A stretch of DNA of 64,000 nucleotides from an uncultured bacterium (GCA_913009335.1 CAJVXN010000002.1:11981-75980); one strand, 5' to 3'; positions 4,118-57,406 are shown, numbered from the stretch's first letter. The notes: generated from the sequence alone by a model not told the origin. Translations and numbers: made by a program.

Positions 4118-4239
4118 CCCCGTTAGAGATAGGTCGTCTTTAGACGACCGTCTATCTATCGTAAAATTAGTTGATAAAGCTTGCGTTTCTATAATTGTTA
4201 ATCCCGTTTGATATGCCTTAGGCGTTATCTCTAACGGGG
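4118..4239 (+). repeat. TIR-bounded intergenic repeat element, copy 1 (CCCCGTTAGAGATAGG-hairpin GGTCGTC/GACGACC ... TATCTCTAACGGGG)
   Basis: 14-bp terminal inverted repeats and an internal hairpin read directly. The left end lies 4 nt upstream of the MFS start codon. The right TIR encodes the last 7 codons and the stop of the SRPBCC gene. Confidence 0.8.
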
Positions 4240-4685
4240 TTTACCTTCGCGTTCGCCTCTTTTTCTATTATGTCTTTAAAGATCTTTAGGTTTTCCTGTG
4301 AATGTTTATTTATAAATCCTTCTACCTGCTTGTCATTGTATTTGGCTTTTTTGTCCATGGTGAAGTGTTGTATCCATGTCATGATTACACCGTCGTTAAC
4401 GGGGGTGTAGAGCCAGATGATTTTCATGTATTCAAACGGAAATTTTGGGTCTTTTTTTTCAGCGTAGGCTAGATGATTATCACGAAATAGCAGGCGAAAT
4501 GATTGCCAGGAGTTTCCTTCGTCGTCTGTTAGGCGAAAAGTAAGCTTATTCCCCTCTTTTTTTAAAATCGCGGCCTCTTTATATTCTGAGCCAAATAGTT
4601 CCGTCCATCGGGGAATATCGTTTGAAATATCAAATATTGTTTCATAAGGCGCGTTAATCAATATGGAATTGCTTGTGTGTCCCAT
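4218..4685 (-). CDS. SRPBCC / polyketide cyclase-aromatase-like protein (Polyketide_cyc2-like)
   Basis: 155 aa with an N-terminal pattern typical of the Bet v1-like polyketide cyclase family. The C-terminal 7 codons derive from the repeat element. Confidence 0.55.
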   Translation of the reverse strand: MGHTSNSILINAPYETIFDISNDIPRWTELFGSEYKEAAILKKEGNKLTFRLTDDEGNSWQSFRLLFRDNHLAYAEKKDPKFPFEYMKIIWLYTPVNDGVIMTWIQHFTMDKKAKYNDKQVEGFINKHSQENLKIFKDIIEKEANAKVNPVRDNA

Positions 4686-4723
4686 GTTTTCTCCCTTCGG
4701 TCGAAAAGTTTACAGTTAACAGT

Positions 4724-5521
4724 TTACAAAGTTGCTATCACTCTTGCCCAGGCAGCGCCGGTTTTACGAATTTTTACCGGGAGACAATGCACTTTAAATC
4801 CGTGATCAGGTAATTTATGCAGGCCGCCTAATCTTTCGATATGTATAAATTCTCGCTTTCTTCCGTAAAAATGCGCCGGCCAAAGTACGCTGGGGTCGTT
4901 ATTCTTCATAAATTCCTTTATCATGAATTGATACGGCCTGTCTATTCCCATAGTATCAACACCGAAAATTTTAATACCATTATCTAAAAGATAGTCGATT
5001 GCCGATATATCTACTGCCGGATAATCGGAAAAATAATCTTTACTGCCGAATAGCTTATCCCTTCCGGTAAAAAGCAAAACAATATCCAGCGGCTTTAGCC
5101 GGTAATTTATTCTTTTTAATTCGTCCTGGACGTCTTTCTTTGTGATTGTTTCCCCTGATTTTTTATGGTAGAAGTTAAGCCGCACACCATCTGAGATGCA
5201 CCATTCTAAAGGAATTTGATCAGATGTCTTCGATGCTCTTCCTTCGGATTTGCTTCCGTAATGATAGGAGTAATCAAGGTGGGTTCCAATGTGTACCGGT
5301 GAATGTACCACTTCAAGAGATAGGAATTCTTCATCGGGTAGGTCGTTCTTTTTTATAATGCGTTTACCCAGTAGATACTTTATTTTTCCGGATAAACTTT
5401 TACAAAGTAGGACCTTGTTTAGTTTTTCAATACCGTCTTTATGAGATACGCGGGTGATATGCATATCGTGTACTTCAAAGGCTGTATCGTCAATTGCAAG
5501 GCTTAAGTCTATAATTTTCAT
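4724..5521 (-). CDS. cyclase-family protein (PF04199-like putative cyclase / kynurenine formamidase-like)
   Basis: HIGTHLD metal-binding motif characteristic of the cyclase family. Confidence 0.55.
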   Translation of the reverse strand: MKIIDLSLAIDDTAFEVHDMHITRVSHKDGIEKLNKVLLCKSLSGKIKYLLGKRIIKKNDLPDEEFLSLEVVHSPVHIGTHLDYSYHYGSKSEGRASKTSDQIPLEWCISDGVRLNFYHKKSGETITKKDVQDELKRINYRLKPLDIVLLFTGRDKLFGSKDYFSDYPAVDISAIDYLLDNGIKIFGVDTMGIDRPYQFMIKEFMKNNDPSVLWPAHFYGRKREFIHIERLGGLHKLPDHGFKVHCLPVKIRKTGAAWARVIATL

Positions 5522-5764
5522 TTAGCTAAGCTTTGATCGTATGATGCTGACAATTTCATTGATTGAGTTAAGCTTTGTTACTTCCTTTGCGGATATCTGG
5601 GTATCAAAAGCTTTAGAAAGGGCAATTACAACCTCCACCATTTCTGTTGAATCTACTCCCAGACTATCGTATAGTTTTCCCTCTGGTTTTAGCTCTTCGG
5701 GTTTAACCCCCAGACTTTTAACTATAGTATCGTTTATTTTTTGTTGTATTTCGGCTGTTTCCAT
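5522..5764 (-). CDS. acyl carrier protein
   Basis: 80 aa with the LGVDSTE phosphopantetheine-attachment motif. Confidence 0.8.
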   Translation of the reverse strand: METAEIQQKINDTIVKSLGVKPEELKPEGKLYDSLGVDSTEMVEVVIALSKAFDTQISAKEVTKLNSINEIVSIIRSKLS

Positions 5765-5794
5765 ATTGTACCCCTTTTTTCCTATAATTATCGT

Positions 5795-5833
5795 ATAACT
5801 TTACATTTCCACCTTGTTAAAATGTAAAGTTAT
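5795..5833. other. intercistronic hairpin (ATAACTTTACATTT ... AAATGTAAAGTTAT) between the rSAM stop and the ACP start; same family as 560-600
   Basis: 14-bp inverted repeat with a 12-nt loop, read directly. Confidence 0.55.
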
Positions 5834-5858
5834 TTTAATTATCCTCTATTTTCCAATA

Positions 5859-7319
5859 TTAAATATGCACTTCTCCCTTTGTTGCTCCTGCCTCCCATTT
5901 GTCTACACCGCGCATTACATCCTTAAAGCAAAGCTTTGCCAGTTCGTCAAAATCGCTTTCCAGGATTCTATGGATTCTTCCCGGTTTTGAAAAGAATTCG
6001 CGCATACACCATGAACCGAGTTCGCCCAATTGCTGTATTGAGAGGTGATTTGTCGGCATGACAGGATGCAGAAAATCCCATTTTAGGAAATCAATTTTTT
6101 CAGGCTCAATCCAGTTTTTCTTCATGCCCATTCTCCACATTGGAGAATTTGGAGAGGGTGTTACATAGCCTATCCATAAGATATCAGGGTCGACTTGATC
6201 GGTAAATTCGTATCTTTGTTTTATGATCTGTTCATTGTCGTCTTCAAAACCCATCATTATATCGGCAACAACTGCGATATTGTGCTTGCGTAGTATATCG
6301 ATTGTCTTTTTAATTTGATCAATAGTGATTCCCTTGGCTATTTTTTTCAATTCCTCGGGGGTGGTTACTTCAATACCGAATACACCGGTAAAAAGTCCTG
6401 TTTCTTTCATTAGCGGCAGTATGGGTTCGCAGTTTATCCAGTCGATTGCCCTTCCTAATGATACCCATTTAATGGGATTGTTGTGCGCTTTTTTCAGTTC
6501 ACAGAATTTACGCACTCTTTCAGGATTAGTATTAAAATTATCGTCCTGAAGAACTACTACCTGTACGCCATATTTTTTATGTAAGAGATCAAATTCTTCC
6601 ATTACGCGCTCAGGTGATTTTGCCCGCCATTTTAAGAAGTCTGAAGGGCTCCTGGGGTCATATTGGTCCCATTCATAGCAGAATGTACATGCTGAAGGGC
6701 ATCCGCGGGATGTAACCATATCTACAAATGGTTTCCAGTGTGTATGTCCGACGTATTTATCCATGGGGAATAAATCGTACGCGGGAAGCGGGAGTTTGTC
6801 TAGGTCCATGTTAAGCGGTCTATATGGCCCCATTACAGCTTTGCCATCTACTCTTGCAGCAACTCCGGCTACCTTTGATATATCTTTGTTTTTATCGATT
6901 GCGGCAATCAGGTCGCCGAATGCTTCCTCTTCCGACATAACTATGTAATCAACTGCCGGGTTGGCGTCCAATGTCTGTGTGGGCATTGCTGAATACCACA
7001 GGCCTCCTAATATTATTTTTACCTTAGGCAGAGTTGCTTTTATTTGTTTGGCTGCTTTATTGAAATGCGCAACTACCGCATAACCTCCGTAGGAATGAAG
7101 CTGTTCACCCATAACTATTAAATCAGGATTTTTCTCTTTTATTTTTTCGAGCATTTCATCCATTTCGATTTCGAGGGCCTTGCAGTCTAGAACTTCTAGA
7201 TCTTCATATCCGTTTTCTCTGATAAATGCTGCCCAGTGCGCGTATAATTGATTAGGCGAAACATGTTTTCCGTGTGTTGCCCATGAACCTACTTTTGGCA
7301 TAACAAATAAAATCTTCAT
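5859..7319 (-). CDS. B12-binding radical SAM protein (class B radical SAM, methyltransferase-like)
   Basis: N-terminal B12-binding-like domain plus the CxxxCxxC motif (TSRGCPSACTFC). Confidence 0.7.
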   Translation of the reverse strand: MKILFVMPKVGSWATHGKHVSPNQLYAHWAAFIRENGYEDLEVLDCKALEIEMDEMLEKIKEKNPDLIVMGEQLHSYGGYAVVAHFNKAAKQIKATLPKVKIILGGLWYSAMPTQTLDANPAVDYIVMSEEEAFGDLIAAIDKNKDISKVAGVAARVDGKAVMGPYRPLNMDLDKLPLPAYDLFPMDKYVGHTHWKPFVDMVTSRGCPSACTFCYEWDQYDPRSPSDFLKWRAKSPERVMEEFDLLHKKYGVQVVVLQDDNFNTNPERVRKFCELKKAHNNPIKWVSLGRAIDWINCEPILPLMKETGLFTGVFGIEVTTPEELKKIAKGITIDQIKKTIDILRKHNIAVVADIMMGFEDDNEQIIKQRYEFTDQVDPDILWIGYVTPSPNSPMWRMGMKKNWIEPEKIDFLKWDFLHPVMPTNHLSIQQLGELGSWCMREFFSKPGRIHRILESDFDELAKLCFKDVMRGVDKWEAGATKGEVHI

Positions 7320-7333
7320 TTTTCTTCCTCCTT

Positions 7334-8566
7334 TTATTTATTCTTTTCGATTATCAGCGCTGAATTTATCCCGCCTCTACCGCGCGAGATTATAAGCGCC
7401 TTATTTATTTTATGCTCACTTGCCTCTTTTTTAATGTAATTTAATCCGTCAGGATCAGGATTATCTAGATTTATCGTTGGGGGAATTAAGCTGTTTTGCA
7501 TTGCCAGTATTGTAATGATTAAGTCTATCGCTCCGGAAGCGCCCAGTAAATTCCCAAACATCGATTTTGGACAACTAGCAGGTATGTCTTTTGATCTTTT
7601 ACCAAATACTTCTTTTATTGCCGCGGTCTCACCTTTATCCCAAATATCAATTGCCAAACCATCCAGGCTTATGTAATCTATGTCTTTTGGATTTGCTTTC
7701 GCGTTAATTAAAGCTGTTTTTATTGCTCTGGCAAGTTGAACTCCTTTGGCATCAGGGGTAATTCTGTTTTGTCCGTCACAATTTGAGGCATATCCTGATA
7801 TTACAGCGTTTATATCAGCGCCTCTTTTTGTAGCGCGCGCGAGGCTTTCTAAGACCATTATTCCTGCGCCTTCGCCGATTACGAAGCCGGATTTTTCTTT
7901 ATCAAATGGCCTATAAGCGCCTGGAGGGTTTTGATTGTTTTCGGATAGCCCGCCATAAGTGTTGCAGCACAAAAGAGCATAGGGTGTAACAGGCGCCTCC
8001 ATGCCTCCGGCAAGTATCATATTCAGCTTGCCTTTACTTAAGGTTTTATTTGCGTATCCTATTGCTTCAAGAGAACTTGCTCTATCAGCAACGATAGTTT
8101 TAGAGAATCCCTTTATGCCGTAATATATAGATACTTGTCCTTGCGGAGCTGCCGGAAACCAGGCTGATGCCATATAGGGTGATACACCATCACGGCCCTC
8201 AATATACATATCTCTTAATTCTGTTTCCGCGTATAACCATCCGCCTAACGCATTGCCCAGGAATATTCCTACAAGATTAGGGTCCTCTTTGGCTATGTCA
8301 ATTCCCGCATCTTTTAAAGCAAGCTCTGAAGCGATTAGCGCCATATGCGAAAAAGCATCTATTTTTTTAAGTAGTCGCTCGGAAACATGTGAATATTTTT
8401 CAAGTTCCTCGATTTGTCCGGCAATATGTGACGGGTACTTTGAACTATCAAAGCGCGTGATTTCTTTAACAAAAGATCTCCCTGCTTTAATATTTGCCCA
8501 GAATTGTCTTTTGCCTATGCCGCTTGGGGCAACTACTCCTAATCCCGTAATTGCGATTTTTTCCAT
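7334..8566 (-). CDS. beta-ketoacyl synthase-like protein lacking the catalytic Cys and His residues (chain-length-factor / KS-beta-like partner)
   Basis: KS fold (GLGVVAPSGIG N-terminus). Aligned against the adjacent KS, Cys becomes Arg (IVADRASS) and both His are lost (ISLDG, MFGNLLGAS). Confidence 0.6.
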   Translation of the reverse strand: MEKIAITGLGVVAPSGIGKRQFWANIKAGRSFVKEITRFDSSKYPSHIAGQIEELEKYSHVSERLLKKIDAFSHMALIASELALKDAGIDIAKEDPNLVGIFLGNALGGWLYAETELRDMYIEGRDGVSPYMASAWFPAAPQGQVSIYYGIKGFSKTIVADRASSLEAIGYANKTLSKGKLNMILAGGMEAPVTPYALLCCNTYGGLSENNQNPPGAYRPFDKEKSGFVIGEGAGIMVLESLARATKRGADINAVISGYASNCDGQNRITPDAKGVQLARAIKTALINAKANPKDIDYISLDGLAIDIWDKGETAAIKEVFGKRSKDIPASCPKSMFGNLLGASGAIDLIITILAMQNSLIPPTINLDNPDPDGLNYIKKEASEHKINKALIISRGRGGINSALIIEKNK

Positions 8567-8571
8567 ATTTA

Positions 8572-8695
8572 CCCCGTTAGAGATAGGTCATCTTTAGATG
8601 ACCGTATGTTAAACTAAACTTATTAAACTAAACTTGTTTTTTTATAATTATCTGTTTTCCCGTTATCAATGATGGTGTTGGTATCTCTAACGGGG
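8572..8695 (+). repeat. TIR-bounded intergenic repeat element, copy 2 (hairpin GGTCATC/GATGACC)
   Basis: Same TIRs as copy 1. The hairpin carries compensatory substitutions. It lies 6 nt upstream of the KS-beta-like start codon. Confidence 0.8.
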
Positions 8696-8707
8696 TTTAA
8701 TTCCTTG

Positions 8708-9967
8708 TTATTCAAATCTCCTTAGCACTAAAGATGAATGTACTCCGGAGAATCCGCTACTTGTTTTTAATATTGTATTTACCTTTTGTTTTCGGGCAAC
8801 GTTCGCGATATAGTCAAGGTCGCACTTTGGATCGCGTTCATCCTGGTTTATCGTCGGCGGCAGGATATTATTTTGGAATATCATGGCGCAAATTACAAGC
8901 TCTATTGCGTTTGCCGCGGCCAATGGATGGCCGATCATTGATTTTAGTGAACTAGAAGGTATCTTGTAGGCATAATCACCGAATACCATCTTATAAGCAT
9001 CGGTTTCAAATACGTCGTTCATGCGTGTGGAAGAGCCATGAGCGTTGATATGATCTACTTCAGTGGGTTTTATCCCTGAATCTTTTAATGCTAAATTTAT
9101 GCAGTTTGCCATGGACGTGCCGTCACCCGGCAAGTCTGTCATATGAAACGCATTGCAGCTTGTACCAAATCCTAAAATCTCCGCGTAGATAGGCGCGCTT
9201 CTTTTTTTAGCGTGATCTAATTCTTCCAGGATTAGAATGCCCGCGCCTTCGGATAAAACAAAGCCATCGCGTTTGTTGTCAAATGGACGGCTGGCAGCTT
9301 CGGGGTTATCATTTTTAACAGATAAAACATTTACTACATCAAAGGCCCCGAATGTTATAGGTGTAATGGGTGCCTCGGATGCTCCGGCAATCATTATATC
9401 TGCTTCGTTATCCTGTATCAATTCTAAGGCGTATCCTAATGAGTCTGTTCCGGCTGTACATCCTGTTGAAATGGTGTTACATACACCTTTTAATCCGTAT
9501 TTTGCCGAGAGTTCTATTGAAGGGGTATTAAACATAGATGCGTCATAAAGATCTGGCCGTACCTTGGATGGGTCAATTGGATTCTTGCCATTGTCGGTAA
9601 CCATGGCAAATTCCTCTTCCATGTATTTTGTGCCGCATATCGCATTGGCAAGAGATACTCCTATGCGTTCAGGGTTCTCTTTTGGGAAATCAAGAGCGGA
9701 ATCCTCGATGGCCATCTTAGCTGATGCAACAGCAAACTGAACGTATCTATCCATACGCATTACGTCTTCATGTGTTAGTCCTAATTTAAACGGATCAAAA
9801 TCACGCGCTTCAGCAGCAATCTTGGTATTAAAAATCGATACATCAAAACCGTCTACTAATTTTACGGCTGATTTTCCCGATATGAATGCCTGGTATGCGT
9901 TATCTTTTCCTATGCCATTTGGGGAGATAACCCCAATTCCAGTTATAACTACGCGTCGTTTCTTCAT
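8708..9967 (-). CDS. beta-ketoacyl-ACP synthase (FabF / KS-alpha-like, catalytically complete)
   Basis: Active-site STGCTAG, INAHGSST and MIGHPLAAAN motifs are present. Confidence 0.75.
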   Translation of the reverse strand: MKKRRVVITGIGVISPNGIGKDNAYQAFISGKSAVKLVDGFDVSIFNTKIAAEARDFDPFKLGLTHEDVMRMDRYVQFAVASAKMAIEDSALDFPKENPERIGVSLANAICGTKYMEEEFAMVTDNGKNPIDPSKVRPDLYDASMFNTPSIELSAKYGLKGVCNTISTGCTAGTDSLGYALELIQDNEADIMIAGASEAPITPITFGAFDVVNVLSVKNDNPEAASRPFDNKRDGFVLSEGAGILILEELDHAKKRSAPIYAEILGFGTSCNAFHMTDLPGDGTSMANCINLALKDSGIKPTEVDHINAHGSSTRMNDVFETDAYKMVFGDYAYKIPSSSLKSMIGHPLAAANAIELVICAMIFQNNILPPTINQDERDPKCDLDYIANVARKQKVNTILKTSSGFSGVHSSLVLRRFE

Positions 9968-10014
9968 AATTATTCAGTAACCCTATATGTTTTTCCAAAA
10001 ATATAAATATAAAG

Positions 10015-10617: not shown

Positions 10618-10625
10618 AAGATCTC

Positions 10626-11633: not shown

Positions 11634-11643
11634 GCATTACTCC

Positions 11644-14054: not shown

Positions 14055-15044
14055 CGGGGCTAACTTCCAAAGGTCAAATATGCGGTTAAACGGCGCATAC
14101 CACCGGGACAGTTTTGCCATATCCCCTTTTAATTTAAGCTTGCGTTGTGTTGTGGCCGCAAACGGGTCCAATTTCCTGCTAAAAACAAGTCTCCAGTAGA
14201 CTATGGATCCGGATATTACAAACTCTGCCGTTTCGTCATTGGTTACTTTATCAATGTTTCCTTTATTAAAATGAAAGTTATATACCTTATTTTCTTCATC
14301 TACCTTTATAGCGAGTCTAGTAGTTAAGTCCAGGCTCTTCCCTTTTTCTTTTATCTGGCTATCGTTATTAACCAGGCTTACGATTTTATCAATATGCTCT
14401 TTTGAGAAAAGTTTGTATTTTTTTAATTCTTCACTGGGGTCATCTGTTTTCGGTAAATCTACTTTGTCCTTTTGTGGATTTGATTGTAAGGCAATATTTA
14501 CCTTGCAGGTTTCATCCAGCATTTGGGTTAAAGAAAATGCCTGCTTGAAGTCTGAGCCTATTGATACAATACCGTGTCTTTTAAGGACAACAATGTTACT
14601 GGTTTCCAGGGCTTTTAATACGGGCTTGACGTTAGTTACTATGGGCCCGTCTTGCTCAAGTGCGGTTATATTGGAGAGATAAAGGCGCGCTTCAAAGTTA
14701 TTAATTTCTAAATTTTTAAAATTAGAATAAAACGCGGTAGTAAACGCGGGATGCGCGTGTATTACCGCGTTGACCTCTTCAAATTTATACGCGCCTAAGT
14801 GAAGGGCTAGTTCGCTTGTGGGTTTAGAGTCGTTTTTATCTAAAACATTTCCTGATTTATCGATTAAAACTATTTCATCCTCTTCCAGGTATCCTAAGTA
14901 GGCATTATGGGTAGTGACTAAAAATTTATCTTTATCTACCCTTACGGATATATTACCTACCGGGCCACAGACAAAGGATCTGTTGGCTAGTTCTTTGGCC
15001 CAGAATAGTATCTCATCTCGTTTATCTTTGTATAGGGTTTTCAT
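14046..15044 (-). CDS. class II aldolase/adducin-family protein (MtnB-like) fused to a C-terminal SCP2-like domain
   Basis: HAHP metal-binding motif (VIHAHPAFTTAF). C-terminal KLKLKGDM...L pattern typical of SCP2. Confidence 0.5.
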   Translation of the reverse strand: MKTLYKDKRDEILFWAKELANRSFVCGPVGNISVRVDKDKFLVTTHNAYLGYLEEDEIVLIDKSGNVLDKNDSKPTSELALHLGAYKFEEVNAVIHAHPAFTTAFYSNFKNLEINNFEARLYLSNITALEQDGPIVTNVKPVLKALETSNIVVLKRHGIVSIGSDFKQAFSLTQMLDETCKVNIALQSNPQKDKVDLPKTDDPSEELKKYKLFSKEHIDKIVSLVNNDSQIKEKGKSLDLTTRLAIKVDEENKVYNFHFNKGNIDKVTNDETAEFVISGSIVYWRLVFSRKLDPFAATTQRKLKLKGDMAKLSRWYAPFNRIFDLWKLAPAE

Positions 15045-15436
15045 GATATTACCTCATTTTGTGGTTTTAGGGTCTTAATTTTTTTTATGCTTACTCTTTT
15101 ACCTAAAAATGTTGATGCGTCTTTATCGGTCAGGGGCATTTTTTTAAGTTGGCCCGCATTAGTTATTTCTACCGGAATTTTATGGAAGTCCGCGAGTATT
15201 TTTACCCCTAAAGCGCCCGGTAGAAAAATATTCCCGTTTGTTTTAAACAGGTATACTTTTTTAATATGCCGCATAAAGAATAAATGCCCTAACGCGCTAT
15301 CGCAGATAAGCGTTGATTTCATCTTTTTCTTTTTTAGTTCTTTCGCCAATATTTTCGCGCCAAATAGGCTTGGCCGCGTTTCACAAAATAATATATTTTC
15401 TTTTTTGTGCCTGGCGTAAAAATCTCTATCCGGCAT
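15041..15436 (-). pseudogene. eIF-2B/MtnA-family C-terminal fragment (truncated paralogue of the adjacent mtnA; possible pseudogene)
   Basis: FCETRPSLFGAKI...LICDSA...NIFLPGALGVKILADFHKIPVEI aligns with the C-terminal half of the MtnA/eIF2B fold. The ORF-track start at 15538 lies inside the repeat element; the internal ATG at 15436 is the likelier start. Confidence 0.4.
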
Positions 15437-15462
15437 TCCGTATATTAGTGTGTAAGTTTTTA

Positions 15463-15587
15463 CCCCGTTAGAGATAGGTCGTCTTTCCGACGACCGTTTA
15501 TTAGTATTAGATTTATTAGCTACGCGTTTCTTTTTCATAATTGATCCGTATTTTTATAAATACGTATAATAGTTATCTCTAACGGGG
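15463..15587 (+). repeat. TIR-bounded intergenic repeat element, copy 3 (hairpin GGTCGTC-TTTCC-GACGACC)
   Basis: Same TIRs. Lies between the mtnA stop and the eIF2B-like fragment. Confidence 0.8.
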
Positions 15588-15594
15588 TTAAGTT

Positions 15595-16590
15595 TTACCA
15601 TTTTTTTGCAAATTCCTCCGGAGTATATATACGGTCAAAAAATATTAGCCCGTTTATCAGATAATTAGGCACAACATCAAAAGCAGGATATATCGCGTCT
15701 TGATTGCCGGAGGTTATACGCGTGTTGCGGAATTTCAGCATTTCTTCTTTTGGCCGGTATTCGATTTTTATATCTTTGATAGTTTTTGTTTGGCCGGGGG
15801 GCTGAACAAAAGAGTAAAACGGTATCCCGAAATGCCTGCTTAGCACCGCTAACTGGTATGTCCCTATTTTATTTACAATATCGCCTTGTTGTGTTGAGCG
15901 GTCCGATCCGACAAGAACCATGTCTATGCGGCACCTTTTTAATATGTCCGCGGCTTGAATATCGCATAAAAGATATATATTAATGCCGGCTTGATGTATC
16001 TCCCACGCGCTCAGGCGTGAACCTTGGAAATAAGGACGGGTTTCAGTTACAAAAAATTCTATTGCTTTACCCATTTTTTGCGCTTCCGCTGCGACAGCTA
16101 CGAGTTCACCGGATACATTGCAGTGGGTTAGAATCTTAGCAGAATTAGGCAGCATGTTTGCCACCAGCTTTGCGCGATACCTGCGGGCGTTCTGTACGGA
16201 ATTTATATATGTAAAGACAGAATTTTTAAGAGATTCGATAAAAACAGCATTATTTGTGTTTTTTAGCATCTTTAGTAGTTCGCTTTGTAATTGAGTAAAT
16301 GCAAATGTGGGACGTGCTGCGGCAAACTTTTTAGTTATTGACCCTGAAAGTTTAGTGAATTTAGAAAGCGAATTTATCTTTTTATTCTTCGCCTCTAGAA
16401 TTAATATATAGTAAAAAAGGAGCACTTGTCCAAATGCGCGCGTTTTCATACTTTTTAATACAGAGACGGCACCTTTTAAGTTTTTGACTTTTATGCGTGT
16501 TTCTTTAAACGGCAGGGCGGTTTCATCCAGCACGGATATGTGTCCGCCTTTGTAAGCAACCGGATTAAAAAGTGGTGATTCGGCTATCAT
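15595..16590 (-). CDS. mtnA: S-methyl-5-thioribose-1-phosphate isomerase (eIF-2B family)
   Basis: TETRPYFQGSRLSAWE and VNKIGTYQLAVLSRHFGIPFY motifs. Confidence 0.7.
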   Translation of the reverse strand: MIAESPLFNPVAYKGGHISVLDETALPFKETRIKVKNLKGAVSVLKSMKTRAFGQVLLFYYILILEAKNKKINSLSKFTKLSGSITKKFAAARPTFAFTQLQSELLKMLKNTNNAVFIESLKNSVFTYINSVQNARRYRAKLVANMLPNSAKILTHCNVSGELVAVAAEAQKMGKAIEFFVTETRPYFQGSRLSAWEIHQAGINIYLLCDIQAADILKRCRIDMVLVGSDRSTQQGDIVNKIGTYQLAVLSRHFGIPFYSFVQPPGQTKTIKDIKIEYRPKEEMLKFRNTRITSGNQDAIYPAFDVVPNYLINGLIFFDRIYTPEEFAKKW

Positions 16591-20405: not shown

Positions 20406-21164
20406 TTATTTCAATTTTCGCTCATGCTTATTAGTTCTTATCTGGGCAAGTTCCCAGCTGTAGTCATAGAGATGCAGGCCTTTACTTACTGCGATAATTT
20501 CGCCGTCTCCGACGCCGATTTCTTCAGCCATGTAGTTTTTAACTAGTTGTAATCCTCCTAAATTAGAAGGAAATCCTCCCCAGAGATCCCATGATCTAAA
20601 GTACAGAATAAAATGCAGCTTTCCGTAACGTATGCGTGTATCAATAATACGCAGGCATGGCGGATCAATTAGCTTGATATCAGATGGCATGCCTATTTCC
20701 ATAACTGCCTGATTAGTTCCGTGACCGTGTGTCTTGTAGAGATTTATTACTTCTTCGATCTGGTTGCAGTTTAAAGAGATTTCTCTTATCATGCTATTTT
20801 CGCCATCGGTTTTTTCCTCTATGCGCACTTTCGGGTCAACTAGTCGCTCACCATAGGTATAGTCTTCGGTTTTGGTCTTCTGGCCCGTTAAAAGATAGCT
20901 AAGATAAGAGTTTATGTAATTCATATCTGTTGGCGGGGGTATGCTCATGCCTTCCGGTATGATAGGGATTATCTGGTGAGATGGTTTTTTTACTCTAATG
21001 CTTACAAAATCAAATTCCAGGCGCTTTTGGCCTTTATAGCTCCCCCTATCTATAGTGTATATGTGTCCTTTATCCAGGATGGTGGATAGGCACTGAAACC
21101 ATGCGTCATCTAAGTCAAAGGCGTCGATATATACAGGTTTTAAGGATTCTTCTTTTTGTGTCAT
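20406..21164 (-). CDS. thyA: thymidylate synthase (divergent ThyA family)
   Basis: DPPCLRII (active-site Cys region) and FRSWDLWGGFPSNLGGLQL, similar to ThyA QRSCDxxLGLPFNIASYALL. Confidence 0.5.
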   Translation of the reverse strand: MTQKEESLKPVYIDAFDLDDAWFQCLSTILDKGHIYTIDRGSYKGQKRLEFDFVSIRVKKPSHQIIPIIPEGMSIPPPTDMNYINSYLSYLLTGQKTKTEDYTYGERLVDPKVRIEEKTDGENSMIREISLNCNQIEEVINLYKTHGHGTNQAVMEIGMPSDIKLIDPPCLRIIDTRIRYGKLHFILYFRSWDLWGGFPSNLGGLQLVKNYMAEEIGVGDGEIIAVSKGLHLYDYSWELAQIRTNKHERKLK

Positions 21165-21282: not shown

Positions 21283-21620
21283 TACGTGGTGGGCAGGAGA
21301 GGGTTCGAACCTCTGAAGCATTGCGCAGCAGATTTCAAGTGCCCTCAAGTTACCTTGAGGCTTGGACTATCTCATCACCATAGCATATAGGCTTTAGGTG
21401 GTGGGCGCTTAGGCTCTTCCTTTAAAAGAAGGGCCTATATCCTTATTGGATTAGTCTCTGCACCTTCCTATCAATAAAAATTGCGTTGATAGGCTTGGCT
21501 CAGGATTGCCCAAAATATTATTGGGTTTCCCTGAATTCACCCACTTTTCCATCTTATCTTTCGACAAGACGCTGCATTTTATACAGTCTGCCCCCTTTGG
21601 CCACTTGGGTACCTGCCCAG
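21283..21620 (-). ncRNA. structured RNA candidate with a tRNA-like 3' end (T-arm AGAGG-TTCGAAC-CCTCT, acceptor CCTGCCC-A-CCA) pairing perfectly with a 5' strand GGGCAGG ~320 nt upstream; tmRNA (ssrA)-like
   Basis: 7-bp acceptor complementarity, an encoded CCA, a P2-like pairing (CAAGTG / CACTTG) and a GNRA-capped 7-bp helix, all read directly. No convincing tag ORF ending in AA-stop was found. Confidence 0.35.
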
Positions 21621-21918: not shown

Positions 21919-21994
21919 TGGAGCTGGCGAGAGGATTTGAACCCCCGACCAGAGGTTTACAAAACCCCTGCTCTACCAACTGAGCTACGCCAGC
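21919..21994 (-). tRNA. tRNA-Thr (anticodon TGT), CCA encoded
   Basis: GCTGGCGTAGCTCAGTTGGTAGAGCA... anticodon loop TTTGTAA, T-loop TTCAAAT, acceptor CGCCAGC-T-CCA. Confidence 0.8.
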
Positions 21995-26970: not shown

Positions 26971-28041
26971 TTAAAGCTGTTTTCGCCGATATATTTTAAT
27001 TGTTGATGGTGTTTTTATTGCGGAAATATTATGCGGGAGGTCAACTATGGATTTTTCTTTTCGCGCATCAATTAGGTCATCTAATTCTTGGATATGTTTA
27101 AAACTCAGGCGTCTTAGATTTCCTGTTATTTTCTGTATGGCAAGCCGCAGTACCATTCTTCGTACGGCAGGATGAAGTCTAAGTATTTTATCGGTTTTAA
27201 GGCTTATTTGTGATTTAGAGTTTGCTTTATGTATTTTGGCCAGGCTTTTTTCTGCTTCGGATTTTATGTATTCATAATCTAGTGCCACAGTTTGAGCCGT
27301 ATTTGCCAGGATGCTTACGATGTTTTTATTGTATTTTTTTAGTTTAGGTATAAGGTTGCGTCTTATCCTGTTTCTAAAATAGATGTCTTTTTTATTTGTA
27401 CGATCCAACCTGTATGAAATCTTACGTTTTTTAAGGTAGGTTAAAATCTCTTTTTTAGGTATCTCCAGCAGCGGTCGTATGAGTGTATACTGGCGGATTT
27501 TTCGTTTAGGTAGTATAGCTGAAAGACCATAAAGCCCACTACCGCGCAATAGGCGCATGAGCACTGTTTCTGCCTGATCATCTTTTGTGTGCCCCAGGGC
27601 AATTTTAGCGGCTTTGATATTATCGGTAACTTTAAATAAGAAATCCTGGCGCGCTTTACGGGCGGTTTCTTCAATGGAGGCATTGTTATTTAGCTTTTTA
27701 ATATTAATACTTTCAGAGAAAAAAGGAATATTTAGCCTTGCTGATAACGTTTGGCAAAACAACATGTCTTTTTTAGACTCTTTCCCTCTTAACATATGGT
27801 TAAGGTGGGCCGCGGCAATTTTAAGTGCGAATTCTTTTTTTAAGGAGTTTAGTAAGTATAATAGGGCAACTGAATCCGGGCCGCCTGAAAGGGCGACTAG
27901 TATGGTTTCGTTTTTTGTAATAAGCCGGTGTTTTTTAAGTGATGCTTTAACTTTATTGGTGAGCCCCGTTAGAGATAGGCCATCTTTAGATGGCCGTTTG
28001 CTAACGGTAGAGTTACTAGATATAAATTTATTTTTTTTCAT
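26971..28041 (-). CDS. tilS: tRNA(Ile)-lysidine synthetase
   Basis: PP-loop SGGPDS. The N-terminal ~30 codons, including the ATG at 28041, lie inside repeat copy 4, and no alternative start is obvious. Confidence 0.75.
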   Translation of the reverse strand: MKKNKFISSNSTVSKRPSKDGLSLTGLTNKVKASLKKHRLITKNETILVALSGGPDSVALLYLLNSLKKEFALKIAAAHLNHMLRGKESKKDMLFCQTLSARLNIPFFSESINIKKLNNNASIEETARKARQDFLFKVTDNIKAAKIALGHTKDDQAETVLMRLLRGSGLYGLSAILPKRKIRQYTLIRPLLEIPKKEILTYLKKRKISYRLDRTNKKDIYFRNRIRRNLIPKLKKYNKNIVSILANTAQTVALDYEYIKSEAEKSLAKIHKANSKSQISLKTDKILRLHPAVRRMVLRLAIQKITGNLRRLSFKHIQELDDLIDARKEKSIVDLPHNISAIKTPSTIKIYRRKQL

Positions 28042-28087
28042 TATTAATCGAGGTATATAAATGCTTAATAAGTTATCTCTAACGGGG
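27964..28087 (+). repeat. TIR-bounded intergenic repeat element, copy 4 (hairpin GGCCATC/GATGGCC)
   Basis: Same TIRs. The hairpin carries double compensatory changes. It contributes the apparent start codon and N-terminal extension of tilS. Confidence 0.8.
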
Positions 28088-28107
28088 TGAGCATTTTATG
28101 GGGCGGG

Positions 28108-37192: not shown

Positions 37193-37199
37193 TTATTTA

Positions 37200-37323
37200 C
37201 CCCGTTAGAGATAGGTCGTCCTTAGACGACCGTATGTTAAACTAAAACTAACAGATAAACTTACAAGTTCCATAATTATGAATTCATCGTCCATAAGCGC
37301 AAAAGGCATTATCTCTAACGGGG
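37200..37323 (+). repeat. TIR-bounded intergenic repeat element, copy 5 (hairpin GGTCGTC-CTTA-GACGACC)
   Basis: Same TIRs. Lies 8 nt upstream of the FmdE-like start codon. Confidence 0.8.
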
Positions 37324-37327
37324 TTTA

Positions 37328-37448
37328 CCCCGTTAGAGATAGTTCGCCCAGGCGAACGTAAACCAAAGTTATATCCAAATAAAACACATCTCTATGTATT
37401 GCGTTACTATAATAAATCATAGCTATATTTTAGCATCTCTAAGCGGGG
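37328..37448 (+). repeat. TIR-bounded repeat element, copy 6, in tandem with copy 5 (hairpin GTTCGC/GCGAAC; right TIR degenerate CATCTCTAAGCGGGG)
   Basis: Read directly. The right TIR supplies the last codons (NPA-stop) of larB. Confidence 0.65.
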
Positions 37449-38107
37449 TTTATAAGGTTCGCAAAGTATCCGGCACCAAATCCATTATCAATGTTTACTA
37501 CGGTAACACCAGGAGAACAGCTGTTTAGCATTGTAAGAAGTGCCGCTAATCCGTTAAAGCTTGCGCCGTATCCTGTGCTAGTCGGAACCGCTATCACCGG
37601 AGATTTTACTAGTCCGCTTACAATACTTGCCAGTGCTCCCTCCATGCCAGCGACAACTATAATTACGGAGGATTTATATAAGAGTTTTTCTTTATCCATT
37701 AGCCGGTGTATTCCCGCGACTCCTACATCAAACAGGCGTTCAACAGGACTGCCAAGAATTTGACATGTTAAGGCAGCTTCTTCTGCCGCTTCTAAATCTG
37801 CCGTACCGGCACTGACGACTAATACGCTATTTTTTTTAAGCTTTGTTTTTTTGTCTTGGATATAGGCGAGTTTAGCCAGGGGACTATATTTTAATTTAGG
37901 ATAATATTGTTTAAGATGCGTATAGATAGATCGTTTAAGTCTGGTCAGTAAAAGAGTATGCTTTTGCGCGAGTACGATACTAGCGATGTCTTTTATCTGT
38001 TTTTTTGTTTTACCCGGGCAATAAATTGCTTCAGGATATCCTCGCCGATTCTTTCTATCTGTATCAATCTTGGCAAATCCTAAATCACAATAACCTTTTT
38101 GTTTCAT
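37439..38107 (-). CDS. larB: nickel-pincer cofactor biosynthesis carboxylase LarB (PurE-like)
   Basis: N-terminal LarB-type domain plus PurE-like VVAGMEGALASIVSGLVKSPVIAVPTS. Confidence 0.6.
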   Translation of the reverse strand: MKQKGYCDLGFAKIDTDRKNRRGYPEAIYCPGKTKKQIKDIASIVLAQKHTLLLTRLKRSIYTHLKQYYPKLKYSPLAKLAYIQDKKTKLKKNSVLVVSAGTADLEAAEEAALTCQILGSPVERLFDVGVAGIHRLMDKEKLLYKSSVIIVVAGMEGALASIVSGLVKSPVIAVPTSTGYGASFNGLAALLTMLNSCSPGVTVVNIDNGFGAGYFANLINPA

Positions 38108-46183: not shown

Positions 46184-46349
46184 TGAGCGTTCTTTAAGAA
46201 TTAAAAGCAAAGGTAAACTATCCGAAAGGGTAGGGCACAAAGCCTTGAGTTTAAGTCTCTGATACACAAGGAGATATGACAGTCAGGCTACCGTATTCCA
46301 ACGTATTGGAATCCGTAAATGCAGCCCATTCTTTTGAATGGGTTTTTTT
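46184..46349 (+). ncRNA. candidate small RNA / cis-regulatory leader ending in an intrinsic terminator (CCCATTC-TTTT-GAATGGG followed by TTTTTTT)
   Basis: Promoter plus terminator ~160 nt apart. Contains a strong SD (AAGGAG) and a ~37-codon ORF that runs into the terminator. It lies 80 nt upstream of the only plus-strand gene in this region. Confidence 0.35.
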
Positions 46350-46428: not shown

Positions 46429-46707
46429 ATGAAAAATTTTAAACTATTAATTGTTCTTTTGGCAATGGTTATGATTATTGCAAATATGGCTTTCGCAGGT
46501 AATACCCAAACTGTTACTGTTTCGTGTACCATACCTTTGGTTCCGGGCTTAAATGTGCCTATTACTGAAGAAACTACGGTTGTTCCTGATGAGGCTGTTA
46601 GTGAACTCTATGAGTACACAATGATAGTCGCCGAACAAGAACCGGAGATAATGCAGGAAGAAACTGTATCTGAAGATTCAACGTTGTATACGTTTTGTTT
46701 GAAGTAG
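46429..46707 (+). CDS. small secreted protein, unknown function
   Basis: Signal peptide MKNFKLLIVLLAMVMIIANMAFA; GGAGGTGA RBS. Confidence 0.5.
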   Translation: MKNFKLLIVLLAMVMIIANMAFAGNTQTVTVSCTIPLVPGLNVPITEETTVVPDEAVSELYEYTMIVAEQEPEIMQEETVSEDSTLYTFCLK

Positions 46708-51324: not shown

Positions 51325-51420
51325 CTCCTTTTGTTTTGTTGTTGTTATTGTTAATTTCCCAATACGCGTTTTGTTACTAAAAACTTTTTAATAGGTTTTA
51401 CTTTCTATGTTTTCAAAAAA

Positions 51421-53600: not shown

Positions 53601-53685
53601 AAGAGGCAAAGGGGTTTGTGATGATTAACGTATCAGTGCTGAGCTTTCCGGGGTAAATTCTGACAAGCTGCTTCAATATACAGAA

Positions 53686-53970: not shown

Positions 53971-54470
53971 TTTTCTCCCATCCTCCTTTCTATTTTACTC
54001 GTTGCATCAAAAATTATTCTATCGTTGTACCTGCCTAATTGCTCCAGCCGCTCTAACTTTACCAAGGCAAGTTCTTTACTAATCCGCTTTTTATAAAACA
54101 CATCCAATAAAAAATGCACAGCTGTAACAAATTTAACTCCCAACACCTTACAGGCCTTGATTGCCTGGCCATCGTCTGTTGCTAATATCGCCTGCTTTTG
54201 CTGCGCTAATAATAATGCTGACGCTTCTCCTTCAGCAAGAACAAAATCATCCTGGAATTTTTTAAACAATGTCTGGTTTTTGACTTTCATCACTCCAATC
54301 TTGCCAGTATTAATAAGCTCGATAATAATCTTGGCATCAAGAAGCTCAGATTTACAAGTCGCTTCAGCCTTTACCTCTTTAGATATAAAGACTTCACGAG
54401 TGTGTACTATAGTTTTTAATATATCCAGCTTTGCCAATAAAATTAATGTCGAAGCATCAAATACGATCAT
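53967..54470 (-). CDS. PIN-domain protein (DUF3368/VapC-like putative toxin)
   Basis: MIVFDASTLILLAKLDIL N-terminal acidic PIN signature; conserved D...E...D spacing. Confidence 0.5.
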   Translation of the reverse strand: MIVFDASTLILLAKLDILKTIVHTREVFISKEVKAEATCKSELLDAKIIIELINTGKIGVMKVKNQTLFKKFQDDFVLAEGEASALLLAQQKQAILATDDGQAIKACKVLGVKFVTAVHFLLDVFYKKRISKELALVKLERLEQLGRYNDRIIFDATSKIERRMGEK

Positions 54471-54666
54471 CGTCCTGCCTTTGTATACATTCTACTACTA
54501 AAGTATACACCAATGAAAGATGTCTGTCAAGATCTATCATTTCTTTTTTTATGCCCCTGATTTTTCTAATAAATCTCTTCTGAACGTCGCAAAAGTGATA
54601 GTTTTTGCGACACTGTTTAATTCGTAAATATTTGAAAGCGAAAGGGAACGCTTCTATTTTTCTTTT

Positions 54667-55785
54667 TTATTCTCTAAGGCTTTCAACAGATTTTTGGATT
54701 ATTTTTAAAGGGATGCCCTCTTTTATGATAACCCGGCCTATTGCCTTAGGAAGGACAAATCTATTTTTGCCATGAATAAATTTTTTATCAAAGGATTGGG
54801 CCTTGATAATACTATTTAATTTTAAACCTTTTATTTTTGATGGCAGGCCGATATTCGCAAGAATATCTGTAATACGTTTTTCTTCTTTTTGATTTGTAAA
54901 TATTTTAAGTTTTCCTGCGATTCTTTGCGCAGCAAGCATTCCTAAAGCTATTGCTTCTCCGTGAGTGTATGCTTTAAACCTCCCTGCTGTCTCTATGGCA
55001 TGTCCGATAGTATGGCCATAATTTAGAATAGTGCGTATCCCTTTTTTTTCTTTTTCATCAAGCGATACTATCTTAGCTTTAATTGCTGCACATTTATTAA
55101 TTATATGTTCAAGATTTTGATTGTTAAGATTGAGTATATTTGAGTAATTTTTCTCAATATATGAAAATAATAATTTATCTTTAATTATGCCGTACTTAAC
55201 CGCCTCTGCCAGTCCGGCCCTTAGCTGTTTTTTAGGCAGGCTCTTAAGAAGCGATATATCACATAAAACAAGGCTTGGCTGGTAAAAAGCTCCTACAAGA
55301 TTTTTTCCGCAGTCAAGGTCAATTGCCACCTTGCCTCCTATGCTGGAGTCAATTTGCCCAAGAAGTGTAGTAGGTATTTGTATATAAGGTATCCCGCGTT
55401 TATACACGCTTGCGATGAAACCGGATAAATCCCCGATTACCCCTCCCCCCAGGGCAATGATAAATACGCGTTTTCCCTTTGCATATTTAGATACCTTATC
55501 AATGAGCTTAAAAGCTATTCTTTGTGATTTGCTTTTTTCGGAATCAGGTACGCATTCAAAGCGATATGATATGCCGCCTTTTTTTAGGCTATTTTCTAAT
55601 TTTGCACCGGCTATTTTCTTAATTTTGGGGTTTGTGATAATTAACGCGTCGCGCCCAATATTAAGTTTCTTAATACAGCCCGGTAAATTTTTTAAAATCC
55701 TGTTGCCTATTAGAATCGAGTAGTTTCTTTTTCCTAAATTCAGTTTTATTTTTTTCACCCAGCCCTTCCTTCTTAATTTTACCAC
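54667..55785 (-). CDS. aroB: 3-dehydroquinate synthase
   Basis: GGGVIGDLSGFIAS and HGEAIA metal-binding motifs. Confidence 0.85.
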   Translation of the reverse strand: MVKLRRKGWVKKIKLNLGKRNYSILIGNRILKNLPGCIKKLNIGRDALIITNPKIKKIAGAKLENSLKKGGISYRFECVPDSEKSKSQRIAFKLIDKVSKYAKGKRVFIIALGGGVIGDLSGFIASVYKRGIPYIQIPTTLLGQIDSSIGGKVAIDLDCGKNLVGAFYQPSLVLCDISLLKSLPKKQLRAGLAEAVKYGIIKDKLLFSYIEKNYSNILNLNNQNLEHIINKCAAIKAKIVSLDEKEKKGIRTILNYGHTIGHAIETAGRFKAYTHGEAIALGMLAAQRIAGKLKIFTNQKEEKRITDILANIGLPSKIKGLKLNSIIKAQSFDKKFIHGKNRFVLPKAIGRVIIKEGIPLKIIQKSVESLRE

Positions 55786-55810
55786 TGCCCTTTAGGAAGG
55801 GCGGGGTTCA

Positions 55811-56407
55811 TTATATGCCTAATATTACGATTAAGCTTTTAACAATCGGCCAGATTATAAAATCAAATAATCCTAACCAGATAAGGCCAAAAAGAATTAT
55901 AAAACCATAGCGTTCAATAGCTACAAAGTATTTAATCAGTCCTTGCGGTAAGATGCCGAGTAAGATACGGGAGCCGTCTAATGGAGGTAGGGGGAATAAA
56001 TTAAATACCGCAAGTACAAGGTTTAGGGTAACGAATAGTTGTAGTATGTATAAGCCCGTATTATTAAAGATATTTGCTTTTATCAAAAGGCTGCCAAGAA
56101 AAGCCATGGCAAAGTTAGCTAATGGGCCAGCTAGGCCGACAAGTGCAATATTGCCTCGATTGCCAAGATTGCGAAAGTTGATCGGTACTGGTTTTGCCCA
56201 GCCAAAAATAAAGGGTGAACGCATCATAATAAGCATTAATGGAAGCACTATTGTACCGAAAGGATCAATATGTGCCAATGGGTTAAGGGTAAGCCGTCCG
56301 GCATATTTTGCCGTAGGATCCCCTAATTTATACGCGCACCACCCATGGGCAAATTCATGAATAACAACTGCCACATAAAAAACAAGAAGTGAGATAAATA
56401 TTGTCAT
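55811..56407 (-). CDS. site-2 protease family zinc metalloprotease (M50)
   Basis: HEFAHGW (HExxH) within a TM helix; polytopic. Confidence 0.7.
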   Translation of the reverse strand: MTIFISLLVFYVAVVIHEFAHGWCAYKLGDPTAKYAGRLTLNPLAHIDPFGTIVLPLMLIMMRSPFIFGWAKPVPINFRNLGNRGNIALVGLAGPLANFAMAFLGSLLIKANIFNNTGLYILQLFVTLNLVLAVFNLFPLPPLDGSRILLGILPQGLIKYFVAIERYGFIILFGLIWLGLFDFIIWPIVKSLIVILGI

Positions 56408-57255
56408 TTTATTATTTCAATCCTTTCGACTTCAATGAGAGGGATTTTTTGATTTTTTCCATCGACTACTTTTCCGAAAATATTTACATCATAGCCGATA
56501 AATCGGTTTAAGGATTTTCGGTCCCCTTTTAAGTAATATTTTAACTTTCCATCAATAACTAATTTATGGCTTCCTTTTCGCCTGAAGAATATACCCATTG
56601 CGCGAATTTTACCTTGAGCCATTGGTTCAGGCTTAATTTCTTCTTTTGCTGCGACTTTAATCGTATTTTCTTCTGTATTTAGAGGCGCAACTATAACTTC
56701 CGGATCAGGCGCGCAGCGCTTCACAAATTTTTTATGCAGCCAGCCAAAGGCTACATTGTCTACACCTGTGATTTCATACCATTCAGGATGAGCTTTAATT
56801 ACTGTAACTATATAGCCAGTATTGATTTTACCGATTATAGAGGCATTTTCACTTGGCTTTGCTCGTAGATTGACGCGGTTGCCCGTAATAGTACCTTTTT
56901 TCGCATGCGTACGTTTTAGAAACTTAACGTTAATAAAACAGCTAGTTGTTTTGGGTAGGGCTATTTTATACCAATCGTATCTTTGAGTGAGTATTTTGAC
57001 CTTTGTTTCCTTTTGAAGCTTATCGAGTGATTCGTAGTTTGTGCTTGGTCCGGCGCGTAGATTGATATCGTTTGAGGTAATCTTTCCCGGAAAAGGAAAT
57101 TCGAAAGCATTTGCATTCGAGGTCAATGCAAATATTAAAGCCACCACACTGAACCATTTTTTTATGTTCATAATCATTGCTGTCCAAATAAAACCGTCAT
57201 TACCCGGTTTAACCGGGTAATCCAGTTTTTTCTCGACGCTGGATTCCCCGATCAA
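56404..57255 (-). CDS. secreted SH3b-domain protein
   Basis: Signal peptide. Two bacterial SH3-like segments (NLRAGPSTNY..W.KI). Confidence 0.4.
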   Translation of the reverse strand: MIGESSVEKKLDYPVKPGNDGFIWTAMIMNIKKWFSVVALIFALTSNANAFEFPFPGKITSNDINLRAGPSTNYESLDKLQKETKVKILTQRYDWYKIALPKTTSCFINVKFLKRTHAKKGTITGNRVNLRAKPSENASIIGKINTGYIVTVIKAHPEWYEITGVDNVAFGWLHKKFVKRCAPDPEVIVAPLNTEENTIKVAAKEEIKPEPMAQGKIRAMGIFFRRKGSHKLVIDGKLKYYLKGDRKSLNRFIGYDVNIFGKVVDGKNQKIPLIEVERIEIIK

Positions 57256-57286
57256 GTCGGGGAATGACAGTGGGCGGAAGAGAAAT

Positions 57287-57406
57287 CCCGTTAGAGATAG
57301 GTCACCGGAGGTGACCGTCTAGCAAGCTAAAACCAGCGCATGACATTACAAATTCCTTAATCATAAATTCCTTAGATATATATTAGAGGTGTTATCTTTA
57401 ACGGGA
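57287..57406 (+). repeat. TIR-bounded intergenic repeat element, copy 7, degenerate (CCCGTTAGAGATAGG, hairpin GGTCACC/GGTGACC, right end TATCTTTAACGGGA)
   Basis: Read directly. Lies 32 nt upstream of the SH3 gene start. Confidence 0.6.

Follow-up and report, generated by a model that had tools for sequence, protein, structure and literature searches.

Probable miniature transposons with a structure-conserved hairpin at translation starts in Omnitrophota, Patescibacteria and other bacteria

We analysed a stretch of 64,000 nt from an uncultured bacterium (GCA_913009335.1, CAJVXN010000002.1:11981-75980), here called the window, in which seven short elements of 121–125 bp, each bounded by 14-bp terminal inverted repeats (TIRs), lie between genes or within their first codons. 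Very probably these copies belong to a family of miniature, non-autonomous, non-coding DNA transposons (MITEs, for miniature inverted-repeat transposable elements). Many copies are flanked by 4-bp target-site duplications (TSDs) and the corresponding sites are empty in close relatives, and together these two observations mark the copies as inserted DNA. The family is apparently undescribed, and it combines a wide phyletic range with an unusual life at start codons.

Inverted repeats, target duplications and empty sites

When the window was searched for CCCCGTTAGAGATA with at most two mismatches, we obtained 14 matches, compared with 0.23 expected from 100 shuffled controls (the highest number in any shuffle was 4). 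Thirteen of the 14 pair up into seven elements, as the original prediction had described, and both TIRs are exact in five of the seven. The prediction was also right that all copies share one orientation, and six of its seven start positions stand; copy 7 begins at 57286 and not at 57287. The copies are as follows:

Copy 1, 4118..4239, minus strand: 122 bp; TIRs exact; hairpin 4132-4149; TSD TTTA (4114-4117 and 4240-4243)
Copy 2, 8572..8695, minus strand: 124 bp; TIRs exact; hairpin 8586-8603 (GGTCATC/GATGACC); TSD TTTA (8568-8571 and 8696-8699)
Copy 3, 15463..15587, minus strand: 125 bp; TIRs exact; hairpin 15477-15495; flanks TTTA/TTAA
Copy 4, 27964..28087, minus strand: 124 bp; TIRs exact; hairpin 27978-27995 (GGCCATC/GATGGCC); TSD TGAG (27960-27963 and 28088-28091)
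Copy 5, 37200..37323, minus strand: 124 bp; TIRs exact; hairpin 37214-37231; TSD TTTA (37196-37199 and 37324-37327)
Copy 6, 37328..37448, minus strand: 121 bp; left TIR exact, right TIR degenerate (ATCTCTAAGCGGGG); hairpin 37342-37357 (GTTCGC/GCGAAC)
Copy 7, 57286..57406, minus strand: 121 bp; TIRs with one and two mismatches; outer pair T..A; hairpin 57300-57316 (GGTCACC/GGTGACC)

Nearly all open reading frames (ORFs) of the window lie on the minus strand. Read in the direction of transcription, the copies consist of a 5′ TIR, an A+T-rich interior, an ACGG-hairpin-CC segment and a 3′ TIR, followed by the start of the next gene; the hairpin adjoining the one TIR is a perfect 6–7 bp stem in every copy. 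The fourteenth TIR match (2283-2296, minus strand, two mismatches) falls within an adh_short-type ORF (2211-2990); a partner TIR for it was not found, and it probably arose by chance.

The same 14-bp TIR pair is present in more than 113 loci beyond the window. A scan for both TIRs at a spacing of 80-110 nt, in which each species was represented by a single genome, gave at least 113 loci, and a metagenome scan for one TIR plus GGTC gave at least 120, from which 101 distinct elements were analysed for the state of their TSDs and TIRs. The set used for most of what follows comprises 119 copies gathered by their TIRs alone among the matches listed, so that the perfection of their TIRs is partly imposed by the search pattern. 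Among those matches, 59 copies come from Patescibacteria (many classes), 17 from Omnitrophota, 12 from Elusimicrobiota and 11 from Planctomycetota; Ignavibacteria and Desulfobacterota contribute one copy each, both of which look Patescibacteria-type and may be binning contaminants, and the rest come from unclassified metagenome-assembled genomes (MAGs). The TIR family is spread over several phyla, and the suggestion that it is specific to one lineage falls, as the same TIRs occur in at least four. Elements measure 40-150 bp with a main peak at 110-130 bp, and the window holds them at a density of seven in 64 kb. In their common architecture a 14-bp TIR (Y-CCCGTTAGAGATA) directly adjoins a short, perfect hairpin rich in G+C, which is followed by a freely varying A+T-rich interior and the second TIR; the short forms of 40-90 nt contain little beyond TIR, hairpin and TIR. 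Viral contigs gave no match to the two-TIR pattern and nine loci with the single-TIR pattern, of which only one is a true copy: a 56-nt mini copy (TIR-hairpin-TIR, TSD TCTG) at 555-610 of L125 (the same as L159), on a contig classed as viral. The elements had been proposed to be undescribed, and this apparently holds: no Rfam covariance model matched them at the gathering threshold, an Rfam search by E-value returned only chance microRNA and snoRNA matches (E at least 0.27), and literature searches with the TIR sequence and topical terms gave nothing relevant, leaving the TIR sequence with no Rfam family and no paper that carries it.

We then turned to the flanks, where the original prediction had overlooked the direct repeats. 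An exact 4-bp repeat lies directly outside the 14-bp TIRs in 66 of the 119 copies, compared with a mean of 8.5 and a maximum of 17 when left and right flanks were shuffled against each other; other registers or lengths of repeat gave no signal in these copies. The metagenome elements, an independent set, carry an exact TSD in 55 of 101 cases. Within the window the TSD is exact in five of seven copies (TTTA four times, TGAG once). Copy 3 matches at three of four positions, within A-runs; its flanks (15588-15600 and 15445-15462) hold a common direct repeat of 9-10 nt (TAAAACTTA / TAAAAACTTA) in place of a clean 4-bp TSD, which might be explained by slippage in the A-runs. Copy 7 has no TSD (flanks GAAA/TTTA) and is an older copy. 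Most TSDs have the form T-N-N-A (TGAA, TAAA, TCAA, TGGA), and CTTG, CACG and others also occur. Related copies can differ in their TSD (TTTA in L070 and CACG in L084, for example), which shows that the repeat was made at insertion and not carried along by the element.

The sites of copies 1-4 are all empty in syntenic genomes of related Omnitrophota (82-94% amino acid identity), so that the comparison of orthologous regions which had been proposed as a check found empty sites at four of the four positions examined. The ketoacyl-synthase orthologues in L114, L115/116, L117 and L118 are 94, 85, 82 and 83% identical, and at the sites of copies 1, 2 and 3 these loci have overlapping genes or gaps of 14-40 nt. 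The copy 1 site is empty in L115 and L118, and the copy 2 site in L114, L115, L117 and L118; where L114 reads GGAATTAAGAAATGG, the window reads GGAATTAAA, the element and TAAATATGG. The copy 4 site, in tilS, is empty in L131 (an 88% relative). L118 belongs to the same MAG (JAUXSB01) as L026, which has two copies elsewhere. TSDs and empty sites bear out the part of the prediction that had seen a MITE-like, TIR-bounded element, since they show mobility.

The ends also behave as those of inserted DNA. Among the 101 elements found with only one TIR required to be exact, 37 have an exact second TIR, 47 a second TIR with a single mismatch and 17 one with two or three, a spectrum which indicates that the ends decay after insertion. 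Two tandem pairs share exactly one 4-bp TSD between their members (37200-37448 in the window, copies 5 and 6, with the common TTTA between them and a second TTTA at 37449-37452; and 3369-3617 in L022). In both, the same target was evidently struck twice, which hints at targeting by the site or by the element ends.

Position at translation starts

A long ORF starts exactly on the terminal base of the element in 64 of the 119 copies. There the terminal A or G together with the TG of the TSD forms an ATG (53 cases) or a GTG (11 cases). Where the TSD is exact, the base before its left copy is an A, G or T, which leaves the old start codon still visible (37 of 37); the terminal base thus belongs to the element, and insertion took place after the first base of the start codon. 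At several of these sites an ATG or TTG was turned into GTG. The pattern differs between phyla. Among the matches listed, the outer TIR pair of the Patescibacteria copies is T..A in 51 of 59 cases, and an ORF starts on their terminal base (offset 0) in 49 of 59. Omnitrophota copies have C..G ends, a start codon usually 1-12 nt further on and mostly TAAA as TSD, and Elusimicrobiota copies lie mostly away from starts. In the same loci TGAA occurs 157 times at ORF starts, 875 times in intergenic DNA and 8732 times in total, which places the bias for starts far above a mere preference for non-coding DNA.

In about 10-15 cases the long ORF upstream stops at the TGA in the left copy of the TSD (an ATGA stop/start overlap), and at such overlaps the 4-bp duplication and the terminal purine preserve both genes. 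Shine–Dalgarno (SD)-like motifs stand at a normal distance from the old start codon in only 2 of 63 element-bearing genes, compared with 18% of control genes; this scarcity is consistent with elements surviving only at genes that can do without such a motif. Upstream ORFs that begin at the old start codon end at various points and showed no clear pattern of coupling. The downstream genes are mutually unrelated, and topA alone recurs, in two Patescibacteria. In L043 (3975-4090) and L112 (1315-1429) an element lies exactly on the topA start codon (topA 63% identical), with TGAA as TSD in both and with unrelated interiors; either a single hotspot was hit independently in each, or an old insertion has had its interior replaced.

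The window copies had been described as purely intergenic, each 4-32 nt upstream of a start codon, and this fails for copies 3 and 4, which lie inside the first codons of genes. The TSD of copy 4, CTCA in the direction of the gene, corresponds to codons 2-3 of tilS. The tilS orthologue P0122 (88% identity) starts MLTQKVKASLKK, whereas the window reads ATGCTCA, then the element, then CTCACCAATAAAG, which severs the old ATG from the gene. The start of the tilS ORF is now an ATG within the element (28041-28039, AATAATGAAAAAA), from which it runs in frame through the hairpin and the TIR; this adds 26 residues, with a predicted N-terminus MKKNKFISS..., and public assemblies call the same 356-aa TilS (P0121, 100% identical). 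Copy 3 is inserted ∼11 nt inside a small IF-2B/MtnA-like ORF (15041-15538), whose start is likewise an ATG in the element (15538-15536), in frame through the hairpin and the TIR. Its orthologues start MGKINTYTLIYG and have empty sites. In the window the protein continues with VKTYTLIYG after the element, and the in-frame ATG comes from the same internal motif (CAATTATGAAAAAG). Both tilS and the MtnA-like gene are thus kept open by an in-frame ATG that the element carries.

The remaining window copies lie between genes. Copy 1 separates a polyketide-cyclase-like gene and an MFS transporter gene, and its junction reads GGGG/TAAA/TG in the gene direction, with the start ATG overlapping the TSD. 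Copy 2 lies between two ketoacyl-synthase genes, the downstream ATG being 6 nt past the element. Copy 5 is upstream of an FmdE-family gene (ATG 8 nt past the element), copy 6, in tandem with it, is downstream of an AIR-carboxylase/LarB-like gene, and copy 7 is flanked by a 100-aa ORF and an SH3-domain gene.

Hairpin, putative mobilizing enzyme and alternative explanations

How might such elements move and persist? We propose that a DDE-type transposase acting in trans, possibly of the piggyBac/IS1380 kind, would mobilize them through 4-bp staggered cuts, with the TIR as its binding site and with one end marked by the hairpin as a structural signal in cis. Selection among element lineages for mobility, and not the host, would keep the TIR and the hairpin. 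The start-site pattern would mainly be the residue of selection in gene-dense genomes, where insertions at starts would spare both neighbouring genes because stop and start signals are duplicated or rebuilt. If co-transcribed, the element would form a 14-bp stem stacked on the hairpin, which would bring its flanks together and may help translation to restart.

Several points weigh against reading the copies as MITEs of this kind. About 45% of copies have no exact TSD, and a MITE would not usually have near-identical TIRs in phyla so far apart. A look for a transposase with matching ends had been proposed as a check; neither a transposase nor an autonomous element with these TIRs as its ends was found in the ∼1.5 Mb of loci fetched around copies or in the window, and the enzyme and its family are therefore guesses. 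Finally, the start-codon pattern in Patescibacteria (83%) and the tandems on one 4-bp site (copies 5 and 6; L022) could mean active targeting and not selection alone. We entertain, tentatively and as clearly the less probable view, a specialized 'start-site' transposon system. Here a prokaryotic piggyBac/IS1380-like transposase, passed horizontally between ultra-small bacteria (Patescibacteria and Omnitrophota included), would be actively directed to translation-initiation regions, and the element ends (terminal A/G, internal ATG-Lys-Lys) would have evolved to rebuild or donate starts. Even essential genes such as tilS, topA and rpsL would tolerate the insertions, which would be seamlessly reversible, portable and possibly regulatory 5′ modules.

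The hairpin was examined in the 119 copies, which, having been found by their TIRs, give an unbiased test. In 71 of the 119, compared with 13 of 2380 shuffled interiors, a perfect Watson-Crick stem of 6 bp or more starts at the inner edge of one TIR, and these 71 copies have 44 distinct stem sequences. The hairpin arms listed in the original prediction were correct, and its view that structure is conserved and not sequence is upheld on this larger set. The usual form is a 7-bp stem beginning with GG and a loop of 3-4 nt, followed by GT. In a seed alignment, which was chosen for pairing, six of seven stem pairs had changed on both sides, a score that none of 500 shuffles reached and that no shuffle or slid register came near. 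About one third of copies have no local hairpin and instead show an extended long-range stem or other variants. Only four copies carry a single mismatch in the stem, and no G-T pair occurs in ∼500 stem pairs. RNA helices under selection are normally rich in G-U pairs. On this ground we take the hairpin to be a signal at the DNA level, or else one copied from arm to arm, a reading that falls short of proof, and a DNA-level cis signal is favoured over a regulatory RNA.

These data bear on the alternative that the host selects and keeps the TIR stem and hairpin as a cis-regulatory or processing RNA in front of genes (an RNase III site, a translational operator, a thermosensor or a leader). Besides the covariation of the stem and the position at start codons, a very stable predicted fold would suit such an RNA: in single-strand folding all seven window copies form a TIR stem stacked on the hairpin, with strongly negative z-scores (-3.5 to -7.0). 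SD-like motifs are also weakly over-represented 4-7 nt ahead of the element (7 of 63), as if the stem-loop were skipped. The same alternative has to accommodate sites that are present or absent among close relatives, 4-bp TSDs, and a hairpin that is gene-proximal in 65 copies (among them all window copies) and distal in 24. Moreover, the genes downstream are unrelated apart from the two topA cases, the interior has no conserved unpaired bases, G-U pairs are missing from the stems, the second TIR decays when only the other is required, and Rfam holds no match. On balance a host-selected RNA is unlikely, and the structured intercistronic RNA that the original prediction had offered as the primary nature of the element is not borne out. 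A terminator scan flagged the hairpin of copy 3 alone as terminator-like, the tail past the hairpin being generally not U-rich. Orientation relative to operon context (27:22 versus 9:15) did not differ significantly, the direction being that expected if the hairpin were polar in one orientation.

A full-length parent of the MITEs was sought among TIR-core pairs 170-6000 bp apart, all of which proved to be combinations of separate small copies; the ∼1.5 Mb of loci contain no TIR-bounded segment longer than 170 bp. Clustering of 892 ORFs near copies revealed no recurrent transposase family, nor did the profiled window ORFs, picked by size and position and not exhaustively, include a transposase. 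In L137 only 5 nt separate three tandem mini copies sharing CTTG (3765-4020) from a XerC/D-like integrase gene downstream of them, and a frameshifted IS110-family transposase gene (4286-5250) lies 270 nt from this array. As a candidate enzyme the IS110-type transposase was set aside, being a single case and not TIR-bounded.

Movement as single-stranded DNA by a RAYT/IS200-type Y1 transposase, as for repetitive extragenic palindromic (REP)/REPIN-like elements, is highly improbable. The whole element is a foldback, its subterminal hairpin is perfect and free of wobble pairs, as would suit single-stranded DNA, and Y1_Tnp genes do occur in related Omnitrophota (L115 and L117). Y1/HUH transposition, however, gives no target duplication, whereas here the 4-bp TSD is exact and variable in sequence. 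The Y1_Tnp relatives hold a different, 30-nt REP-like palindrome and no TIR elements in 21-kb syntenic stretches; conversely, the window has TIR elements, no paired REP-like palindrome and no Y1_Tnp gene at the syntenic position (no scan of the whole window was made for it). Because they accompany this other palindrome, the Y1_Tnp genes do not fit as the enzyme. They encode 220-232 aa (IS200-like, possibly RAYT), lie between ACP and cyclase genes (L115 13028-13726; L117 12992-13654) and are absent at that place from the window and L118. The palindrome (∼30 nt, AGTAACACCGCGTAGGTGTTAC) is found at 9962-10001 of L117 and at ∼9960-10001 and 14587-14631 of L118, at junctions where the window has TIR elements. 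It appears that small mobile repeats have those intergenic junctions in common as landing sites.

Two further alternatives carry still less weight. Invertons, in which a recombinase flips a promoter between inverted repeats, would account for conserved inverted repeats around ∼95 bp just upstream of genes, for both orientations across genomes and for an outward-pointing TATAAT-like box whose favoured place is 40-49 nt away from the hairpin-distal end. Yet TSDs and empty sites imply insertion of the whole element, all seven window copies share one orientation, promoter-like sites in the window are not in excess (64 compared with 59 in shuffles) and no invertase gene was noticed in the loci, whose ORFs were clustered and only a few of them profiled, so that this explanation is very improbable indeed. 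Integron attC sites, or an attC cluster without its integrase, deserve next to no credence: the TIR holds GTTAGAG/CTCTAAC, close to the attC core GTTRRRY/RYYYAAC, and the ∼120-bp length, co-directional genes and single window orientation resemble chromosomal cassette arrays, but the polarity is reversed (5′-GTTAGAG...CTCTAAC-3′ on both strands, compared with 5′-RYYYAAC...GTTRRRY-3′), copies lie 4-20 kb apart with housekeeping operons between them, empty sites show that the 122-bp unit was inserted alone with a 4-bp TSD, and no integrase was seen among the profiled window ORFs.

The mobile element family stands out in three respects. One TIR sequence spans distant phyla, including the smallest and most gene-dense bacteria; the junctions rebuild a start codon or donate an in-frame one, by which an element can sit on essential genes; and the subterminal hairpin stays perfectly paired even as its sequence varies without restraint. 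Should this be confirmed, the family would illustrate how selfish DNA can survive where a genome has hardly any room to spare, would account for wrongly called N-termini in MAG annotations (26 residues of the public tilS call are encoded by the element) and would point to a widely transferred transposase in Patescibacteria and Omnitrophota.

The host DNA itself is an ordinary Omnitrophota chromosome. Its genes (MFS, FabF-like, MtnA-like, TilS, FtsH, GatA/B, TsaD, CdhD/RACo) have their best protein matches in Omnitrophica/Omnitrophota. A phage origin, considered in view of genes on one strand, tRNAs and a group I intron, was ruled out by the housekeeping genes and these best hits. The group I intron (21343-21593, minus strand; complete, Rfam RF00028, 102.9 bits) has tRNA-Thr (21919-21994) on one side and, on the other, an ORF (20406-21164) that matches thymidylate synthase in its C-terminal half. 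A c-di-GMP-I riboswitch (46202-46295, plus strand, 74 bits), on the strand opposite to almost all genes, is followed by a 92-aa ORF (46429-46707, plus strand) that has no Pfam match.

Comparison with known systems

IS1380 elements have CC ends and duplicate 4-5 bp. The left end of piggyBac is CCCTAGAAAGATAG, and palindromic subterminal motifs lie inside its ends (PMC5861402); the sequence it duplicates is a 4-bp TTAA (PMC7351741). Compared with this left end, the element end CCCGTTAGAGATAG matches at 10 of 14 positions, and both begin 5′-CCC. The termini of our elements are Y-CCCG, and their 4-bp TSD is relaxed (mostly T-N-N-A) in comparison with TTAA. The subterminal palindrome is variable in sequence in this family, whereas that of piggyBac is read sequence-specifically by a zinc-finger domain. 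Neither a piggyBac- nor an IS1380-family transposase was found next to TIRs in the fetched loci or the window. Going by this resemblance of the ends, piggyBac/IS1380 may offer the closest mechanistic lead, and we do not file the family there.

REP sequences and REPINs resemble the family as short, multi-copy, intergenic palindromic repeats that form foldback hairpins. REPINs depend on a Y1 transposase and produce no target duplication, in contrast to the exact 4-bp TSDs and sequence-conserved 14-bp TIRs seen here. Integron attC sites differ in polarity and in their layout of one site per cassette, the copies of this family being spaced over several genes.

The nearest counterparts in general form are the Correia/NEMIS elements of Neisseria and the ERIC/IRU, RUP and BOX-type repeats. 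Like the family described here, these are non-coding, 100-150 bp long and dispersed in many copies near gene starts, with TIRs that fold into a long mRNA hairpin, a target duplication, and presence or absence that varies between strains. Correia elements have 26-bp TIRs, duplicate TA and are confined to Neisseria. With 14-bp TIRs of another sequence, a 4-bp TSD and a range of several phyla, our family falls outside the Correia definition, and it differs from Correia-type MITEs also in having its structure-conserved hairpin at one end only and junctions that rebuild start codons. Rickettsia palindromic elements are likewise small, palindromic, mobile and tolerated inside protein-coding genes. 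They lie in frame within genes and encode internal peptide segments, whereas the elements described here occupy the extreme 5′ end of the gene, where they supply or rebuild its start codon.

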